A DNA stretch of 64,000 bases, from NCBI GenBank assembly GCA_035325445.1, contig DAOKZW010000006.1, positions 23,776-87,775 of the forward strand, in the 5' to 3' direction. Both the position numbers and the translations under genes were made by a program. The first letter of the stretch is position 1, and every line of letters starts with the position of its first letter. Source of the DNA: Flavobacteriales bacterium. Its GTDB lineage: Bacteria; Bacteroidota; Bacteroidia; Flavobacteriales_F; PHOS-HE28. A model generated the notes under the pieces. The model searched no databases. It saw nothing but the letters and a program-made list of their open reading frames with translations, and had not been told where the DNA came from. Positions 5,931 to 12,940 of this stretch are shown here, piece by piece.

Positions 5931-7649
5931 ATGATCCGCCGAGTCGGAAGCGCTACTCTCCAGTGCCTCTTGCTCATCGCGCTGACCCTGGGATGTCGGC
6001 CACTCTCCCCGAAGAATGGCCATGGCCGGCCGGGAGGTCTTGGTCCTGTCACGGATCACGCGATGGTTGTGAGCGCCCACCCCATGGCCACGGCCATTGG
6101 GGTTGATGTGTTGCGTGCCGGGGGCAATGCGGTGGACGCGGCGGTTGCGGTGCATTGGGCCTTGGCCGTGACCACCCCATGGGCAGGCAACATCGGCGGG
6201 GGCGGTTTCGCCGTGCTGCGCCTATCCGATGGGCAGGCCATGGCGCTGGATTTCCGGGAGACCGCGCCGGCCCGTTCCACCGGGAACATGTTCCTGGGGC
6301 CCAACGGTGACGCGGAGCACGATAAGAGCACCTATGGCGCCTTGGCCTGCGGGGTACCGGGCAGCGTGGCGGGGCTCTTCGCGCTGCACGACAGCCTGGG
6401 CCGCCTGCCCATGGCACGGCTGATCCAACCTGCCATCGACCTGGCACGCGACGGCTGCAGGCTGACGCCCATGGAGGCGCATGAGCTCAACAGCTGCCTG
6501 CCCATGTTGAGCAAGTACAGTACGCAGCCCAGCGCTTTCACTTCGCGCAAGCAATGGCATGCAGGCGACCTGTTCCTGCAACCCGAGCTGGCCCGCACCT
6601 TGGAGCGCATCCGCGATGAGGGTGCCGCCGGGTTTTATGGGGGCAGCACCGCAGCGGCCATCGTGGCCGAGATGGAACGCGGAGGTGGCCTCATCGATGC
6701 ACAGGACCTGGCCTCCTATCGGCCCGTGTGGCGGCCCGTGGTGAAAGGGCGGTACCGTGATGTGGAAGTGATCGGCATGCCACCGCCTTCCAGTGGCGGC
6801 ATCATGGTCCTACAGATGCTTCAGGGCATGGAATCCTTGAACGTACACGGCTCGGGATGGCAAACGGCGGCCACCGTGCACCGGATGGTGGAGGTGGAGC
6901 GGCGCGCATTCGCTGACCGGTCCGTCCATTATGGCGACCCGGCCTTCAGTTCCGTGCCCATGACAGGCATGCTGGACAGCCTCTACATCCGTGGCCGCAT
7001 GAAGAGCTTCAACCCTCGCCAAGCCACCCCGAGCGCATTGATCGCGGCGGGCATGCCGATAACGGAGCATGAGGAGACCACACATTTTTCCATCGTGGAC
7101 GCGGAAGGCAATGCGGTATCGTGCACCACCACATTGAACGGTGCATACGGCAGCGGTGTCGTGGTCGGGGGCGCGGGCTTCGTCCTCAATAATGAAATGG
7201 ACGATTTCAGCGCGGCACCCGGCGTGCCCAACAGCTATGGCCTGATCGGGGGGCAAGCCAACGCCGTGGCCCCGGGCAAGCGCATGTTGTCCTCCATGTC
7301 ACCTACCATCATCACCCGGGGCGGCCGCTTGTTCATGGTGGTCGGCTCCCCGGGCGGAAGCACCATTCCCACCTCCGTGTTCCAAGTGATCCTGAACGTG
7401 GTTGACCACGGCATGGGGATGCAGCAGGCGGTAAGCGCACCGCGCTTCCACCACCAATGGCTGCCCGACTCGATACAGGTGGAGGTCGGCGCCCTTGCCC
7501 CTGAGGACAGCATGCAGTTGGTCCGGATGGGGCACCGTTTCAAGGCACGGCGGCCCATCGGCCGCGTGGATGCGGTGTTGTGCCTGCCGGACGGGCGCTT
7601 GGAAGGCGGTGCCGACCCTCGGGGCGAGGATGCGGCGGCCGGTTACTGA
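5931..7649 (+). CDS. ggt: gamma-glutamyltranspeptidase
   Basis: GGT family signatures (TTHFSIVDAEGNAVSCTTTLN, GSPGGSTI). Lipoprotein-type signal MIRRVGSATLQCLLLIALTLGC. An alternative upstream start lies at 5895. Confidence 0.85.
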   Translation: MIRRVGSATLQCLLLIALTLGCRPLSPKNGHGRPGGLGPVTDHAMVVSAHPMATAIGVDVLRAGGNAVDAAVAVHWALAVTTPWAGNIGGGGFAVLRLSDGQAMALDFRETAPARSTGNMFLGPNGDAEHDKSTYGALACGVPGSVAGLFALHDSLGRLPMARLIQPAIDLARDGCRLTPMEAHELNSCLPMLSKYSTQPSAFTSRKQWHAGDLFLQPELARTLERIRDEGAAGFYGGSTAAAIVAEMERGGGLIDAQDLASYRPVWRPVVKGRYRDVEVIGMPPPSSGGIMVLQMLQGMESLNVHGSGWQTAATVHRMVEVERRAFADRSVHYGDPAFSSVPMTGMLDSLYIRGRMKSFNPRQATPSALIAAGMPITEHEETTHFSIVDAEGNAVSCTTTLNGAYGSGVVVGGAGFVLNNEMDDFSAAPGVPNSYGLIGGQANAVAPGKRMLSSMSPTIITRGGRLFMVVGSPGGSTIPTSVFQVILNVVDHGMGMQQAVSAPRFHHQWLPDSIQVEVGALAPEDSMQLVRMGHRFKARRPIGRVDAVLCLPDGRLEGGADPRGEDAAAGY

Positions 7650-10600
7650 CGACCTTCCGCCCCGGAAGGCGTGGCCTGCCCACGGCGCTTGCGCCGCCCT
7701 ACGCCCCAAATGCCCATGCCGGCAGCAGCCGCCAGCCCCAGCAAGGCCATCGCCCAGGCCGTGGCCCTGCGCTTTTCCAGCTCCACGGGGCCCACATCGC
7801 CAAGCAACACCAGGCCCGCCCAGTAGTAGGGATGCAGCAGTTCATCGCGGGCTTGGGCCAAGTAGTGGAGCTTGGCTTGGCGCAAAGCCTCATGCTTGGG
7901 CAGGCCCGCAGCCAATCCATCGTGGAAGTCATCGATGATATCGGCGCTCACTTTCTCATCGATGTTCCAGAGCGCCACCACCAGGCTTGGGCAGCCCGCG
8001 TAAGCAAAGCTGGTCCCGAGTGACCGTACCCCTTCCCCGGCATCTTCGCGCCCTCCACCGCTCTCGCACGCGGTGAGCACCGCCAGTTGGGCCCTGATAT
8101 CAAGTTCGTACAGCTCGTAGGCGTGCAGGTAGCCATCCCTTTCCGCATCGCGGCCATCGCCTTCCTTGCCCAGGACGATGCGCGAATACATGGGTCTTTC
8201 CGGGTCCATTTCGGCATGCGTTCCCAAGTACAGCAGGCCGCTGTTGCCGATCATCTTCCTGAAGTTGCCCTCGGAGGCCTCGGCGCCTGTAAAGACCTGC
8301 GCGGCCAGCCGTTTGCCCATCCTCTGCGCCGTACGCACGGCGAACGGTTGCCGCACATAATGCAGAAAGGCCCGGTCCATCGTGGAAGAATCCTGCAGGC
8401 CTTGCAGGTACTGCTGTTTCATCCGGTCATCGAAGCCGGGTGCCATGGCCAACACCCCTTTGGCCCTGGCTTTGGCCAGGTCGGCGAACTGCAGCGATGC
8501 CGTGGCGCTGAGCAGGTAGGCCATGGCATGGCGCTGGATCATCAGCCGCTGCGGGAACTGTTCCACCTCCGGCCCGGAGAGGAGCGCCTCAAAATTCACC
8601 GTGTGCAATTCCTTGTCGGGGATGATGAGCAGCTCATGGGCCGTGAGCAGATTTTCCACCGGCGCCACTATCCTTTGGTACAATTGGTATGCCTGCTCCA
8701 CATAGGCGGCGGTCCTGCGTTGGTTGATGGCCTCGTTCAGGGCCTTCACGTTCCCGGCCAACCCCTGCGGGTCCAACTTGGCCACATGGGTGCCCTGCAG
8801 GCCGACCACCATGACATACAAGGCCTGTTTGGTCCTGGCATACAGCAGCAGTTGCCGCTCTGGGGTCAACAACCTTTCCCGCACTTCCCGCAGGGTCGGT
8901 ATGCGGTCGCCGTACTTCAGGTTGAAATACTTGGGGTGGTTTTTCTCCAGGTATTGGAGCAAGGCCCGGTACTCCTGCTCCCGGACATCCAAGGCCATAT
9001 TGGCCTCGGGGTCGTCCCGATCAACCTGCATGGCCGTTTGCAGTTCGGCCTCACGGGTCAACAGGCTGTCGGGCACGCCCGCGAAGTTCAAGGCGGTGAA
9101 ACCGCCCAGCCGGCCCTTGAGCAATACGGTCCTGTCTGCCTCGGCCAAGTTGAAGAACCGTTGCATGGCTTGCTCGGACGGTGTGCGCATATAGCAATCG
9201 TAGGCCTCATCCAAGGCCAGGTCGAAGAGCTGCTGCTGGGCACCGGTCATTTGTAGTTTCGAGGCTTGATCATCCACGGCGATCCGGCTGCGCGACAAGG
9301 CGCGTATGGCCAGATCGAGGTCCTTGTCCCACTTTCCACTTCCCCTGGCCTGGGGTTCCATGGCCTGCTCCGTCCTCACCTTCCAGTAGATCGCATCCGG
9401 CAGGACGTGCGGGTCCGGGAATGCCACGGGCATTTGCGATGCCTCCACCACCTTGATCCGATCGCCCAGTTCCTCCATGGCAGCCAGCGCATGCCGATGG
9501 GCGCCGACATACAATCCGGCCTTAAAGGCTTGTTCAGCCATCAGCACATCAACCTGGGCCACCTTGTAATTCCGTTCACCGGCGATGTTCATGGCTATGG
9601 CACGGGCATGCCCAAGGTCTTCCATCGCCTCTGCATGCCTCCCTGCCGATGCCCTCATCTCGGCCCTTCCGCGGTATGCTTGCAACAACATGGCATTGGC
9701 CTCCTGCCCCATCTCTTGGCGGGCGGTTTCCATGCTGCACCGGTATAGGGAATCGGCCCTGCCCCTATCGCCTTTGCGGAAGGCGATATCCGCTAGCTTG
9801 GCGCATGCCTGTGCATATCCATCCCCCTTTTTTCCAAAAGCCTGCACCCATGCCGTCAAATAGGATTCCACCAAGGCCTGCGCCTTGTCGGTGTTTCCTT
9901 GTGCCAGTTCCACTTCGGCCATACGCTCGTTCAAGGCCAGCAATTGGATATCGTTCGCCCCCAGCACCTTGCTTCGGTCGTCCCATGCCAGGCCGAGCAA
10001 TTCACGGGCCCGGCCCATGTCGCCCATGGCGAAATACACTGCGGCGAGATTGAGGTAGTTGCGTGAACGGCCGACGAGGACCTCATCCCGTTCGGCCGGA
10101 TCATGGGTGGCCTCCAAGGCACGTCCAAAATCGCGGAGGCTTTCGTGGTAGTAGGCCTTACCCCGTGCCAGGTCCCCGGCATTCTGCCAGATCACGCCCA
10201 AATTGCCTTGTGTGGATGCTCGTCGCAGCAGGAGCACCACGGAGCTATCGGTCCCTATCGCCTCCAGCGCCTTGCGGTAATTGATCTCGGCCTCGCGCAC
10301 CCGGCCCAGCCTCCACAAGGCCACGCCCAAGGCGTTGTACGATTCGGCCCATTGGGCCGACGGAACACTGTCGGCCCGGGCATATTGCTCCAATGCTGCC
10401 CGGGCATACCGCGCGGTCCCGCGGTGATCGCCGAGCATGCTATGGTCAAATGCCAAATACTGGCGTGCCCTTCCCCGCTGCACCGGGGTAATGTCCGGGC
10501 TTCCATCGGCCACGATCATGGCCAAGGAATCCGTGTGGAGGCAGTCTTTGATGCGGCCGAGCTCATAGTACGTCCAGCTGAGGTCGAACAGGGCCTTGAG

Positions 10601-10906
10601 CAAGTCACCCGGGTTTCCACGTTCCCTTACCAGCTCCACCATGTGGCGTGCCCCTGCCGCGCCGGCATCGGGGCCATCCACCATCCGCTTGGCGCGGCCG
10701 TACCAATACACGTACAAGTAGGTTGAGTCCGCCCAACCTGTTCCGGCGGCCTGTTGCACTTGGCGGTCAACCAGCCGTATCACCTCCCCATATTGCTCCG
10801 CGTGGTATCGTTCACCGATCAGCCGGTGGGTTTCGGCCAAGTCCTGCGCCCCTGCCGACCAGGCCAGTCCCGTGCCTGCCGCCATCAGCACCACGCCCCG
10901 CATCAT
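7643..10906 (-). CDS. secreted TPR-repeat protein with C-terminal CHAT (caspase-like peptidase) domain
   Basis: Start moved to MMRGVVLMAAGTGLAWSAGAQD (signal peptide), which overlaps the upstream stop as ATGA (10903-10906). A ~700-aa TPR array is followed by a CHAT C-terminus with conserved His (LYLGTHAE) and Cys (VLTACESGG) and a terminal ...HPYYWAGLVLLGD motif. Confidence 0.8.
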   Translation of the reverse strand: MMRGVVLMAAGTGLAWSAGAQDLAETHRLIGERYHAEQYGEVIRLVDRQVQQAAGTGWADSTYLYVYWYGRAKRMVDGPDAGAAGARHMVELVRERGNPGDLLKALFDLSWTYYELGRIKDCLHTDSLAMIVADGSPDITPVQRGRARQYLAFDHSMLGDHRGTARYARAALEQYARADSVPSAQWAESYNALGVALWRLGRVREAEINYRKALEAIGTDSSVVLLLRRASTQGNLGVIWQNAGDLARGKAYYHESLRDFGRALEATHDPAERDEVLVGRSRNYLNLAAVYFAMGDMGRARELLGLAWDDRSKVLGANDIQLLALNERMAEVELAQGNTDKAQALVESYLTAWVQAFGKKGDGYAQACAKLADIAFRKGDRGRADSLYRCSMETARQEMGQEANAMLLQAYRGRAEMRASAGRHAEAMEDLGHARAIAMNIAGERNYKVAQVDVLMAEQAFKAGLYVGAHRHALAAMEELGDRIKVVEASQMPVAFPDPHVLPDAIYWKVRTEQAMEPQARGSGKWDKDLDLAIRALSRSRIAVDDQASKLQMTGAQQQLFDLALDEAYDCYMRTPSEQAMQRFFNLAEADRTVLLKGRLGGFTALNFAGVPDSLLTREAELQTAMQVDRDDPEANMALDVREQEYRALLQYLEKNHPKYFNLKYGDRIPTLREVRERLLTPERQLLLYARTKQALYVMVVGLQGTHVAKLDPQGLAGNVKALNEAINQRRTAAYVEQAYQLYQRIVAPVENLLTAHELLIIPDKELHTVNFEALLSGPEVEQFPQRLMIQRHAMAYLLSATASLQFADLAKARAKGVLAMAPGFDDRMKQQYLQGLQDSSTMDRAFLHYVRQPFAVRTAQRMGKRLAAQVFTGAEASEGNFRKMIGNSGLLYLGTHAEMDPERPMYSRIVLGKEGDGRDAERDGYLHAYELYELDIRAQLAVLTACESGGGREDAGEGVRSLGTSFAYAGCPSLVVALWNIDEKVSADIIDDFHDGLAAGLPKHEALRQAKLHYLAQARDELLHPYYWAGLVLLGDVGPVELEKRRATAWAMALLGLAAAAGMGIWGVGRRKRRGQATPSGAEGRQ

Positions 10907-11634
10907 TCGTTCACGCGTGCTTGTATTTGCCGTACCTGCTCCCCATACACCGTATCCCGGTCCAGGCCCAATGCATCCATGGCGGCCCGATCGCCCAGTT
11001 TCAGATAGGCCAGGAAGAGATACCACTTGGCCTTTCCCCTGAACTCGGATGCGTGGTTGCCGGCCACGGCCTGCAGCCCCGGGAGCGCCGCTACCGGGGC
11101 TCCCATTTGCAGTCTTGCCTGGGCGATGTAGTACAGCAACGTGTCGTTTGCGGGGTTCTGCAACAGCAGGCTCCCCCATTTGGCCGCCGCCTCTTCCAGG
11201 TCGCCGAGCTTGAAAGCCACCATGGCATCTTGGAACAGCGGGTCTTTGGTTGCGCTCATGGGTACCGGCAACCCGGGATCGGCGGTGTAGTATTCGGCGA
11301 AGAGGCGCTCATTTCCGGCTGGCGTTCGGAACCACCACAAGGCCCCCAGGGCAAGCATGGCCACCATGGCCGCATACTTGAGCCATCCGCGCCAGCCCTT
11401 GGTGTTGCGATCCACTTGGTCGGCGGGCCCGGCCATCACCTCCTGCAGGGTGCGTTCCATGCCGGCCATTTCCACGGCCAGGATATGTTCGCGCTGCATC
11501 TCCAATTCCTCACGCAGGGCACTATCCCCCTCCACTTCCCGCAGGAACGCCTGCCGTTGGCCGGCGTCCATGGTACCCAGCACAAAGGCCTCGATGGCCT
11601 CGAACCGGTCCTGTTTGATCGGTGCCTGGCTCAT
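10903..11634 (-). CDS. putative anti-sigma factor (single-pass membrane protein with periplasmic TPR-like domain)
   Basis: Start MSQAPIKQ overlaps the ECF sigma stop (ATGA 11631-11634). Central TM helix WLKYAAMVAMLALGALWWF. C-terminal helical-repeat domain. Confidence 0.55.
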   Translation of the reverse strand: MSQAPIKQDRFEAIEAFVLGTMDAGQRQAFLREVEGDSALREELEMQREHILAVEMAGMERTLQEVMAGPADQVDRNTKGWRGWLKYAAMVAMLALGALWWFRTPAGNERLFAEYYTADPGLPVPMSATKDPLFQDAMVAFKLGDLEEAAAKWGSLLLQNPANDTLLYYIAQARLQMGAPVAALPGLQAVAGNHASEFRGKAKWYLFLAYLKLGDRAAMDALGLDRDTVYGEQVRQIQARVNE

Positions 11635-12218
11635 TGTCCGTTTTCGTATTCCCGGCCGATCATTTTCCGGAATGCCCTCAATTTCATCATGCATCGGTAT
11701 TTGATGGTCCGGATGCTTTCCTCTTCCACGCCCAGTTCCTGTGCGATGGTGGCCAGGTCCTTCCGTTCAAAGTAGAATTGGTCCAGCACTTGGCGGCACT
11801 TGGCGTCCAGTTGTGCATACACCTCGCGCAAGCGCAGGATCCGCTCCTCCATCTCCTGTATTTCACCGGCCCCGGAGTGGTCGATATGGATGTCATGTAG
11901 CACTCGCATGTTCTTTTTTGCTGCGGACCTCACCACGTCCAACCATTTGTTCTTGGCCACTTGGAACAGGAATCCACCGGGGTCCGGCATGGCCTGTATA
12001 TCGATGGCTCCTTGCTTCACCTTGGTCCAAAGCACCAGGAATGCTTCCTGGAACATGTCCTTGGCGTCGTCCGTGGTTCCGTTGTTCTCCAGCACATAGT
12101 GCTTCACGGCCGGAAAATGCCTGCTGTAAATATCCCGCACGGCCTGTGGCTCGTTGCGACGCAACCCATCCAACCACGGCATCGCGGCCGCTTTTGCGAC
12201 GAACATCGTTTTTATCAC
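11631..12218 (-). CDS. ECF-type RNA polymerase sigma-70 family factor
   Basis: Region 2 (FQEAFLVLWTKV...) and region 4 HTH (DLATIAQELGVEEESIRTIKYRCMMKLR). GTG start at 12218; alternative ATG at 12206. Confidence 0.8.
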   Translation of the reverse strand: MIKTMFVAKAAAMPWLDGLRRNEPQAVRDIYSRHFPAVKHYVLENNGTTDDAKDMFQEAFLVLWTKVKQGAIDIQAMPDPGGFLFQVAKNKWLDVVRSAAKKNMRVLHDIHIDHSGAGEIQEMEERILRLREVYAQLDAKCRQVLDQFYFERKDLATIAQELGVEEESIRTIKYRCMMKLRAFRKMIGREYENGQ

Positions 12219-12321
12219 GGCAAATGCGATCTGGACGACGATAATACAACAGAATAAGCTTATTTTCCATCCGCTTGGTGCTTGTTGATCATTGGGCGCT
12301 TGCCCATCCTACATCGGACCC

Positions 12322-12475: not shown

Positions 12476-12940
12476 GTGAAAGCAGACTTCATGGCACACC
12501 CAGACTCATCGTCCCATTCTCCTATTCCGGGCCAACAGGTTGGCGCGATCATTATTCTAAGCAACACCGTCCCGACCCTTGATGCCGAGGGCACATCCAT
12601 GACAGGGTTCCTGGTGCACGCCCGTGACCCTGCCGCCATTTTGTATGCTTTGCGCGACCTGTGTGCCGGCCATGAGCCCGTCGGTGAGTCCGCGCAACGC
12701 GTGCGGCTCACCTTGCACAAGGCGGATGGCACCGTTGGCGGCCATGGGTTGAGCCCGCGTGAACAGGAGGTGCTTTGCGGCCTTTCCAAAGGTTTGAGCT
12801 ACAAGATGATCGCCAATGAATTGCACATCAGTTTCGAGACGGTGCGCAGCCATGTCAAGGGCATTTACCTGAAAATGGATGTGAAGAACAACACGGCCGC
12901 CGTGGCCAAGGCCATCCATTGCGGCCTGGTGGCCGGCTGA
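12476..12940 (+). CDS. LuxR-family HTH DNA-binding protein
   Basis: C-terminal LuxR/GerE HTH (LSPREQEVLCGLSKGLSYKMIANELHISFETVRSHVKGIYLKM). The ~90-aa N-terminal region is unrecognised and the start is uncertain. Confidence 0.65.
   Translation: MKADFMAHPDSSSHSPIPGQQVGAIIILSNTVPTLDAEGTSMTGFLVHARDPAAILYALRDLCAGHEPVGESAQRVRLTLHKADGTVGGHGLSPREQEVLCGLSKGLSYKMIANELHISFETVRSHVKGIYLKMDVKNNTAAVAKAIHCGLVAG

Follow-up and report, generated by a model that had tools for sequence, protein, structure and literature searches.

The question raised by this locus is what kind of signalling circuit is encoded by three overlapping minus-strand genes in a 64,000-nucleotide stretch (the window) of contig DAOKZW010000006.1, from a Flavobacteriales bacterium. 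The genes encode, in order of transcription, a sigma factor of the extracytoplasmic function (ECF) type, an anti-sigma-like membrane protein and a large protein with tetratricopeptide repeats (TPR) and a CHAT domain (Table 1). Consecutive genes share ATGA stop/start overlaps on the coding strand, at 11631–11634 (sigma/anti-sigma) and 10903–10906 (anti-sigma/CHAT). Open reading frames (ORFs) and junctions lie exactly where an earlier note, made from the DNA letters without database searches, had placed them. The three genes are one tightly coupled unit. The triad looks like a split, C-terminally anchored, Bacteroidota-wide variant of the ECF signalling described for DdvA and for Craspase, and is not the first of its kind. 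About even confidence is given to a DdvA-like circuit divided over two polypeptides, in which the anchored CHAT protein would serve both as sensor and as site-1 protease for the anti-sigma factor.

The middle protein and the CHAT protein each have about 100 or more orthologue clusters (48–62% identity); every one comes from an assembly of an uncultured 'Flavobacteriales bacterium'. A protein identical to the window's CHAT protein has been deposited from a metagenome-assembled genome. A metagenome scan with the anti-sigma alignment gave 80 loci, and flanking genes were counted in the loci with room for them. The sigma gene is immediately upstream of the anti-sigma gene in 66/67 loci, and the CHAT gene immediately downstream in 57/58. 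The 4-nt sigma/anti-sigma overlap is kept in 45/65 loci; the anti-sigma/CHAT junction lies between −4 and +7 nt in 57/62. The anti-sigma family comprises 442 representatives (50%-identity clusters) at E ≤ 1e-30. Two sampled distant relatives retain the order sigma, anti-sigma, CHAT (~1070 aa) among unrelated flanking genes. Since the triad recurs with unrelated flanks, the triad, not the neighbourhood, is the conserved unit. The gene order on which the earlier note built its case is thus kept among orthologues and in both distant relatives. Mis-called ORFs and chance adjacency are ruled out by the conserved linkage in orthologous and distant loci.

A second scan, of species-representative genomes with the CHAT alignment, also gave 80 loci, mostly distant (22–33% identity). 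These span Flavobacteriales, Saprospiraceae, Lewinellaceae, Cytophagales, Cyclobacteriaceae, Prolixibacteraceae and Chitinophagales. Cultured carriers include Prolixibacter bellariivorans, Draconibacterium and Flavilitoribacter nigricans. Around the distant TPR-CHAT genes, 49 strong matches to one ECF subgroup were found. The distance from sigma to CHAT gene is <1 kb for 30 of them, 1–2 kb for 13, 2–4 kb for 6 and 4–7 kb for none (~245 kb scanned in the 4–7 kb bins). Where at least 3.5 kb is available on both sides, the sigma gene lies within 3.5 kb of the CHAT gene in 31/42 distant loci. Four gene orders occur: convergent (23), sigma upstream and co-oriented (10), divergent (9), sigma downstream and co-oriented (6). 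The gene after sigma encodes a transmembrane (TM) helix in nearly all distant loci and always has the pattern IE.Y..G.L...E...FE..L..D..L..E at the N-terminus of its product. Linkage of the triad is far beyond chance and survives rearrangement.

Two TPR-CHAT genes stand beside one sigma/anti-sigma pair in eight of these loci: L006 (3573–10252), L019, L040, L042, L048, L051, L065 and L079 (L numbers denote loci). They are in tandem in several, e.g. L006, L019 and L065. Duplication and diversification of the sensor/protease is suggested by these loci. Elsewhere, a second TPR-CHAT gene (~1071 aa) is present ~5 kb upstream of the triad (L163:1–316 and L164:1–316); the genes in between encode a DUF5117/DUF4953 protein and another of 504 aa that has no Pfam match.

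The first gene had been read as an ECF sigma factor with regions 2 and 4, and profile hidden Markov model searches agree. Sigma70_r2 (9.5e-7) and Sigma70_r4 (3.5e-8) are matched above the Pfam cutoffs, and TIGR02937 (sigma70-ECF) is matched with 73.3 bits (cutoff 42.9). The nearest solved relative is SigL of Mycobacterium tuberculosis (E = 1e-10). An ECF-type promoter, for which a search upstream of 12218 had been proposed, is present as a conserved DNA element. It was revealed by an in-frame RIIV that recurs in translated upstream regions of orthologous sigma genes. The element, ATGGAC-N16-CCGTATTATCGT (core form GGAC-N16-CGTATTATCGT), precedes the sigma gene in 37 non-identical orthologous upstream regions. 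A position weight matrix (PWM) built without the window sequence matches the window at 12236–12272 on the minus strand with 24.1 bits. This is the sole match >8 bits in the window; the maximum in 20 shuffles of the window is 19.2 bits. In 570 kb of orthologous loci, 48/48 matches of at least 16 bits are upstream of sigma. No further regulon members were found with the PWM within the 64 kb. In orthologues a conserved GTG follows the promoter block by ~27 nt, which supports the GTG at 12216–12218 as the start of the sigma gene. AC-N16-CGT is the layout of classical ECF promoters, e.g. sigmaW TGAAAC-N16-CGTA. This layout supports autoregulation of the operon, and the sigma factor probably uses the promoter itself.

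The second protein fits a class I anti-sigma factor (ASDI) in genetics and topology: its gene is directly downstream of sigma, overlaps it by ATGA and encodes one TM helix. The AlphaFold model (mean pLDDT 85.7) has three N-terminal helices, the TM helix, a lower-confidence loop and a compact helical-repeat domain. NCBIfam NF052375 'anti-sigma factor' is matched by 23/23 orthologues over the N-terminal ~100 residues (best 5.8e-12, all below the 100-bit equivalog cutoff). NF010501 is matched by 15/23, and zf-HC2 weakly by 5/23. TPR_16 is matched by 23/23 orthologues; the window copy alone gives only sub-threshold TPR matches. No His/Cys motif of the zinc-binding type HxxxCxxC (ZAS subclass) is present in residues 1–68, so the protein, if an ASDI, is a non-zinc one. 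Foldseek with the model retrieved 3-repeat peptide-binding TPR modules (target-normalised TM-score 0.7–0.78). Only the TPR part was matched, and the result is therefore neither for nor against an anti-sigma domain fold. The TM helix (residues 81–103) and the TPR_16 and NF052375 matches across orthologues uphold the earlier description of a single-pass, anti-sigma-like protein with a periplasmic TPR domain. No variation occurs at D119, P120, G121, L122, P123 or M126 in 23 orthologues (46–58% identity). These residues belong to the motif DPGLPVPMS, which is within the lower-confidence loop, 16–24 residues past the TM helix, and is limited to the window's clade.

The anti-sigma-like partner of Prolixibacteraceae is larger, ~500 aa (e.g. 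L014:6543–8054, L022:9709–11223). It shares the N-terminal motif, but the hydrophobic helix comes near residue 336 instead of ~85, and topology and domain content are unlike those of the 243-aa window form.

The third protein matches PF12770 (CHAT) with E = 4.2e-51 over residues 739–1037, and TPR_12, TPR_10 and TPR_8 above cutoffs. The full-length model (pLDDT 86.8, pTM 0.77) is matched by Foldseek to separases, DdvA and Craspase (E 7e-15 to 7e-11). A CHAT-only profile against PDB sequences ranked DdvA (8ROT) first (E = 1.6e-4) and Csx29 of Craspase behind it; single-sequence and full-length-profile searches of the same sequences gave TPR proteins only. By PF12770 and modelled fold the protein is a clan CD caspase-like protein, with predicted protease activity. 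The His/Cys dyad, called intact in the earlier note, is indeed so: LYLGTHAE and VLTACESGG are present. The motifs GTHAE and ACE(S/T)G align to ATHGK (H862) and AACEGG (C907) of DdvA, whose dyad is experimentally defined, and to the dyad region of Csx29. An alignment of 23 sequences, with relatives of 22% identity among them, shows no variation at His897 or Cys947. His is kept in 248/250 relatives and Cys in 245/250, the Cys exceptions being truncated ORFs plus one Arg. The surrounding G950, G952, E958 and G959 are also conserved in ~250 sequences spanning several orders.

The protein had been described as exported. That description stands for the Sec-type signal peptide, the TPR array and the CHAT domain. 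It does not stand for a free periplasmic protein: a C-terminal membrane anchor had been overlooked. The N-terminus is signal-peptide-like in 90/99 CHAT orthologues (crude rule). The anchor with its Arg/Lys tail is found in 99/99 full-length orthologues and in Bacteroidota-type distant relatives, and was not seen in the other CHAT proteins retrieved. The anchor was scored as an uncharged run followed by an Arg/Lys tail; a Kyte-Doolittle threshold of 1.6 misses Ala/Gly/Trp-rich helices. By the positive-inside rule, the Arg/Lys tail after the C-terminal helix argues for a periplasmic body. In the full-length model the last CHAT strand ends ~10 residues short of the anchor, so the CHAT domain is predicted to sit against the outer face of the inner membrane.

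Table 1. Positions of the genes, predicted domains, residues and promoter blocks of the triad in the window, and of small double-glycine ORFs in other loci
Feature	Position	Strand	Basis or remark
ECF (group IV) sigma factor gene, 195 aa, GTG start	11631..12218	-	Sigma70_r2/r4, TIGR02937
Anti-sigma-like single-pass membrane protein gene, 243 aa	10903..11634	-	ATG overlaps sigma stop (ATGA)
TPR-CHAT protein gene, 1087 aa	7643..10906	-	ATG overlaps anti-sigma stop (ATGA)
-35-like block ATGGAA of ECF-type promoter	12265..12270	-	orthologue consensus ATGGAC, 16 nt upstream of CGT
-10-like block GTATTATCGT, orthologue consensus CCGTATTATCGT	12238..12247	-	positions (near-)invariant in 37 upstream regions
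Anti-sigma-like: cytoplasmic N-terminal three-helix region, residues 1-68, presumed sigma-binding	11431..11634	-	AF2 helices 8-19, 24-36, 38-68; pattern IE.Y..G.L...E...FE..L..D..L..E in common with the gene after sigma in distant loci
Anti-sigma-like: TM helix, residues 81-103	11326..11394	-	AF2 helix; hydrophobic run there in nearly all sigma-adjacent homologues
Anti-sigma-like: juxtamembrane periplasmic motif DPGLPVPMS, residues 119-127, candidate cleavage/docking site	11254..11280	-	conservation; function inferred
Anti-sigma-like: periplasmic 3-TPR-type domain, residues 132-243	10906..11241	-	TPR_16 in 23/23 orthologues; Foldseek
TPR-CHAT: predicted Sec signal peptide, residues 1-20, AGA/QD	10847..10906	-	read from sequence (MMRGVVLMAAGTGLAWSAGA/QD)
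TPR-CHAT: helical-repeat/TPR array, ~residues 25-665	8912..10834	-	
TPR-CHAT: CHAT (caspase-like, clan CD) domain, ~residues 680-1040	7787..8869	-	
TPR-CHAT: catalytic His897 codon (predicted)	8216..8218	-	context LYLGTHAE; aligns to DdvA H862
TPR-CHAT: catalytic Cys947 codon (predicted)	8066..8068	-	context VLTACESGG; aligns to DdvA C907
TPR-CHAT: C-terminal TM anchor, residues 1048-1070, then cytoplasmic RRKRR tail (predicted)	7697..7765	-	hydrophobic helix ATAWAMALLGLAAAAGMGIWGVG
Small double-glycine ORFs	L022:6149-6710, L030:6187-6770, L039:5507-5737, L058:533-926		divergent from CHAT
Single-copy double-glycine ORFs	L014, L021, L024, L025, L026, L028, L034, L036, L050, L059		

In the split circuit as proposed, cleavage, signal and regulon are the conjectural parts. 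The cytoplasmic three-helix domain of the single-pass anti-sigma factor would keep the ECF sigma factor at the inner membrane, and the anti-sigma factor would present the juxtamembrane linker (DPGLPVPMS) and a small 3-TPR domain of peptide-binding type to the periplasm. The CHAT protein would be exported by Sec and tethered to the inner membrane by its C-terminal helix, with the CHAT domain ~10 residues from the membrane. The anchor is universal in orthologues and brings CHAT to the same face of the membrane as the anti-sigma linker. The ~640-residue TPR array would project into the periplasm as a ligand-binding sensor. Binding of a periplasmic protein or peptide signal to the array would activate the CHAT dyad. 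Activated CHAT would then clip the periplasmic part of the separate anti-sigma factor near the membrane (site-1), the DPGLPVPMS loop being the obvious candidate site. Intramembrane proteolysis of RseP type would follow and release the sigma factor, which would transcribe its own operon from the GGAC-N16-CGTAT promoter, together with unlinked targets. A proteolytic link between CHAT and the anti-sigma protein had been put forward before; it is judged plausible, and DdvA and Csx29 are precedents for the circuit.

Several points weigh against this circuit. Contact of the CHAT protein with the anti-sigma-like protein, or its cleavage, is something that we only infer. The case for anti-sigma function is built from position, predicted architecture and family matches below threshold, with no match at a curated cutoff. 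The signal peptide was judged by eye and by a crude rule, not by a dedicated predictor. A nearby cognate sigma gene is absent from 11/42 well-flanked distant TPR-CHAT loci. One argument for CHAT as input, the absence of a promoter from its strand, comes from another clade and from a PWM of 7 sites. The DdvA autoproteolysis model is itself unproven, and DdvA dyad mutants are without phenotype in unperturbed cells (PMC11506125). Finally, CHAT is formally also an output in the window's clade, because it is co-transcribed from the probably sigma-dependent promoter. It may be nothing else: sigma and anti-sigma would sense an envelope signal otherwise, and the induced, membrane-anchored protease would cleave other periplasmic targets, such as envelope proteins that are damaged or foreign, or mature or degrade secreted peptides. 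This alternative is rather unlikely. Accessory regulators are likewise often co-transcribed with sigma/anti-sigma genes, as are rseB and rseC. CHAT stays linked to the anti-sigma gene in all four gene orders, which is more typical of interacting partners and favours CHAT as input rather than pure output. Promoters point the same way in the Prolixibacteraceae-type clade, whose CHAT gene is transcribed as a unit of its own. The sigma-type promoter of this clade is GGGTTACC-N14-CGAATAAT. A PWM search did not find it on the CHAT strand (best ≤7.7 bits; background 95th percentile 5.1). On the opposite strand it scores 11–22 bits in 12/13 loci. The search at CHAT genes elsewhere, another proposal of the earlier note, was therefore negative for the CHAT strand in this clade and positive for the strand opposite. 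CHAT as input rather than output is favoured because the sigma-type promoter is missing from the CHAT strand where CHAT is a separate unit.

Two further alternatives concern what the CHAT protein detects and whether it cuts at all. The triad may be an anti-phage sensor like DdvS/DdvA, in which TPR-CHAT would detect a phage component at entry and the sigma factor would induce defence genes elsewhere in the genome. DdvA is the nearest solved CHAT protein by sequence profile and controls CBASS and type III-B CRISPR (PMC11506125); the CHAT paralogues that occur in tandem in 8 loci suggest that a recognition module has diversified. These points are outweighed, and the alternative is improbable. No protein of the three (0/3) matches PADLOC. 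The neighbours are housekeeping genes (GroEL, gamma-glutamyltranspeptidase, a small GerE/LuxR-type regulator, a CNNM/CorC transporter and LptC), and no second promoter site is present in the 64 kb. Flanks vary between loci, with no defence genes in the sampled contexts, and the DdvA authors place only a subset of DdvA-like pairs near defence systems (PMC11506125). The suggestion that the triad is a defence module, or part of a defence island, is thus left without support, because of the housekeeping neighbours and the lack of PADLOC matches. An anti-phage role concerns signal and output and is hence compatible with the split DdvA-like mechanism. Least probable, and very much so, is a non-catalytic CHAT protein that acts as an RseB-like shield or co-anti-sigma factor on the periplasmic domain of the anti-sigma protein until a ligand displaces it. 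The third position in a sigma/anti-sigma operon does parallel rpoE-rseA-rseB, where rseB is the third gene, and TPR arrays mediate protein-protein binding. The bulky TPR-CHAT part of DdvA sterically blocks RseP (PMC11506125). A purely structural role would not, however, account for a dyad and surrounding residues conserved in ~250 sequences; a steric role could coexist with catalysis.

In the Prolixibacteraceae-type clade, 14 loci have 1–3 small genes (34–62 aa) behind an outward-facing sigma-type promoter, 100–250 nt upstream of CHAT and divergent from it. Their products have a double-glycine-type leader, FE[IV]L[ST].EEL..V[KR]GG, and a short charged core, e.g. VEPPKSRDKDVFDFEEE. In L022, L030, L039 and L058 the sigma-type promoter occurs twice, and its second copy, GGGTTACC-N14-AGAATA, precedes the small ORFs. 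The double-glycine pattern has 33 matches in real versus 10 in reversed sequence, and clusters beside CHAT are limited to this clade; none of these small ORFs was found beside CHAT in the window's clade. The arrangement suggests that small peptides are ligands or substrates of TPR-CHAT proteins in some lineages, and the peptide genes would offer a candidate for either. A wider reading is possible, though doubtful: a family extending through the phylum Bacteroidota, in which a membrane-anchored, periplasmic caspase-like sensor/site-1 protease would be paired with a separate anti-sigma factor and, in at least one clade, with sigma-driven double-glycine peptides encoded beside the protease, giving feedback of a quorum-sensing-like or kin-signalling kind.

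At its downstream end the triad converges with the gamma-glutamyltranspeptidase gene. The CHAT gene (minus strand, stop TAA) and this gene (plus strand, stop TGA) overlap by 7 bp at 7643–7649, and no terminator-like hairpin was found between them. At the other end, a 154-aa helix-turn-helix protein of GerE/LuxR type is encoded at 12476–12940 (+), divergent from sigma, with the promoter-containing intergenic region in common. Of 52 orthologous loci whose upstream sequence is long enough, 14 have a homologue; in 12/14 it lies directly upstream in divergent orientation. This neighbour could reflect lineage synteny or be an additional regulator.

The earlier note knew of no characterised ECF-controlled CHAT system, which is wrong: DdvS/DdvA, Craspase Csx29-Csx30 and the ECF54 context are already described. 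DdvS/DdvA of Myxococcus xanthus consists of an ECF sigma factor and a transmembrane anti-sigma factor with a periplasmic TPR-CHAT part (dyad H862/C907; PDB 8ROT/8RW5) (PMC11506125). Its authors propose that signal-induced CHAT autoproteolysis of the juxtamembrane linker is the site-1 step before RseP; DdvA without TPR-CHAT is lost in an RseP-dependent manner (PMC11506125). Fused DdvA-like proteins are reported only from Myxococcota and one Comamonas (PMC11506125). The window module likewise pairs a periplasmic TPR-CHAT protein (predicted topology) genetically with an ECF sigma factor. It differs in having the anti-sigma protein (243 aa, with its own 3-TPR domain) and TPR-CHAT (1087 aa) as separate polypeptides, whereas DdvA is one fused polypeptide. 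Unlike DdvA, the CHAT protein carries a signal peptide and a C-terminal anchor of its own, and the CHAT domain, not the scaffold, adjoins the membrane. The anti-sigma domain of DdvA has CHCC zinc ligands and that of the window has none. The window module is not beside CBASS or CRISPR, its host phylum is Bacteroidota, and overall identity to DdvA is 13–14%. DdvA is the only characterised envelope TPR-CHAT/anti-sigma system, and its reported range is taxonomically narrow. In the triad the presumed protease and presumed substrate are on two polypeptides, and the cleavage hypothesis is therefore directly testable in trans.

Craspase (type III-E) has the same logic of protease, sigma inhibitor and ECF sigma factor: the ECF-like CASP-sigma is bound and inhibited by Csx30, and Csx30 is cleaved by the TPR-CHAT protein Csx29 (PMC10028731). 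Craspase is cytoplasmic, activated by target RNA through Cas7-11 and CRISPR-encoded; for the window CHAT protein a periplasmic location and a membrane anchor are predicted, and cas genes are absent from its neighbourhood. Csx30, unlike the single-pass anti-sigma protein of the window, is no membrane protein. ECF54 of Actinobacteria has CHAT, subtilase and carboxypeptidase genes in its genomic context and no anti-sigma factor; proteolytic sigma control has been proposed (PMC8999054). The conserved ECF-CHAT association is shared with ECF54; the window differs in phylum and in having an anti-sigma-like gene that separates sigma from CHAT. The searchable literature (subscription-only papers and ECF Hub group descriptions being outside coverage) yielded no account of the split Bacteroidota arrangement. 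With canonical regulated intramembrane proteolysis (DegS/RseP-RseA-sigmaE with RseB in Escherichia coli; PrsW/RasP-RsiW-sigmaW in Bacillus subtilis) the triad shares a predicted single-pass anti-sigma factor and a co-transcribed, probably autoregulated ECF sigma factor. As there, a periplasmic site-1 cut is expected before site-2, and the promoter has an AAC-like -35 and a CGT -10. Unlike there, the candidate site-1 protease is a caspase-like CHAT protein encoded in the operon, not a serine protease or metalloprotease. If the split circuit is true, caspase-like proteases would form a general class of enzymes for the site-1 step of ECF signalling.

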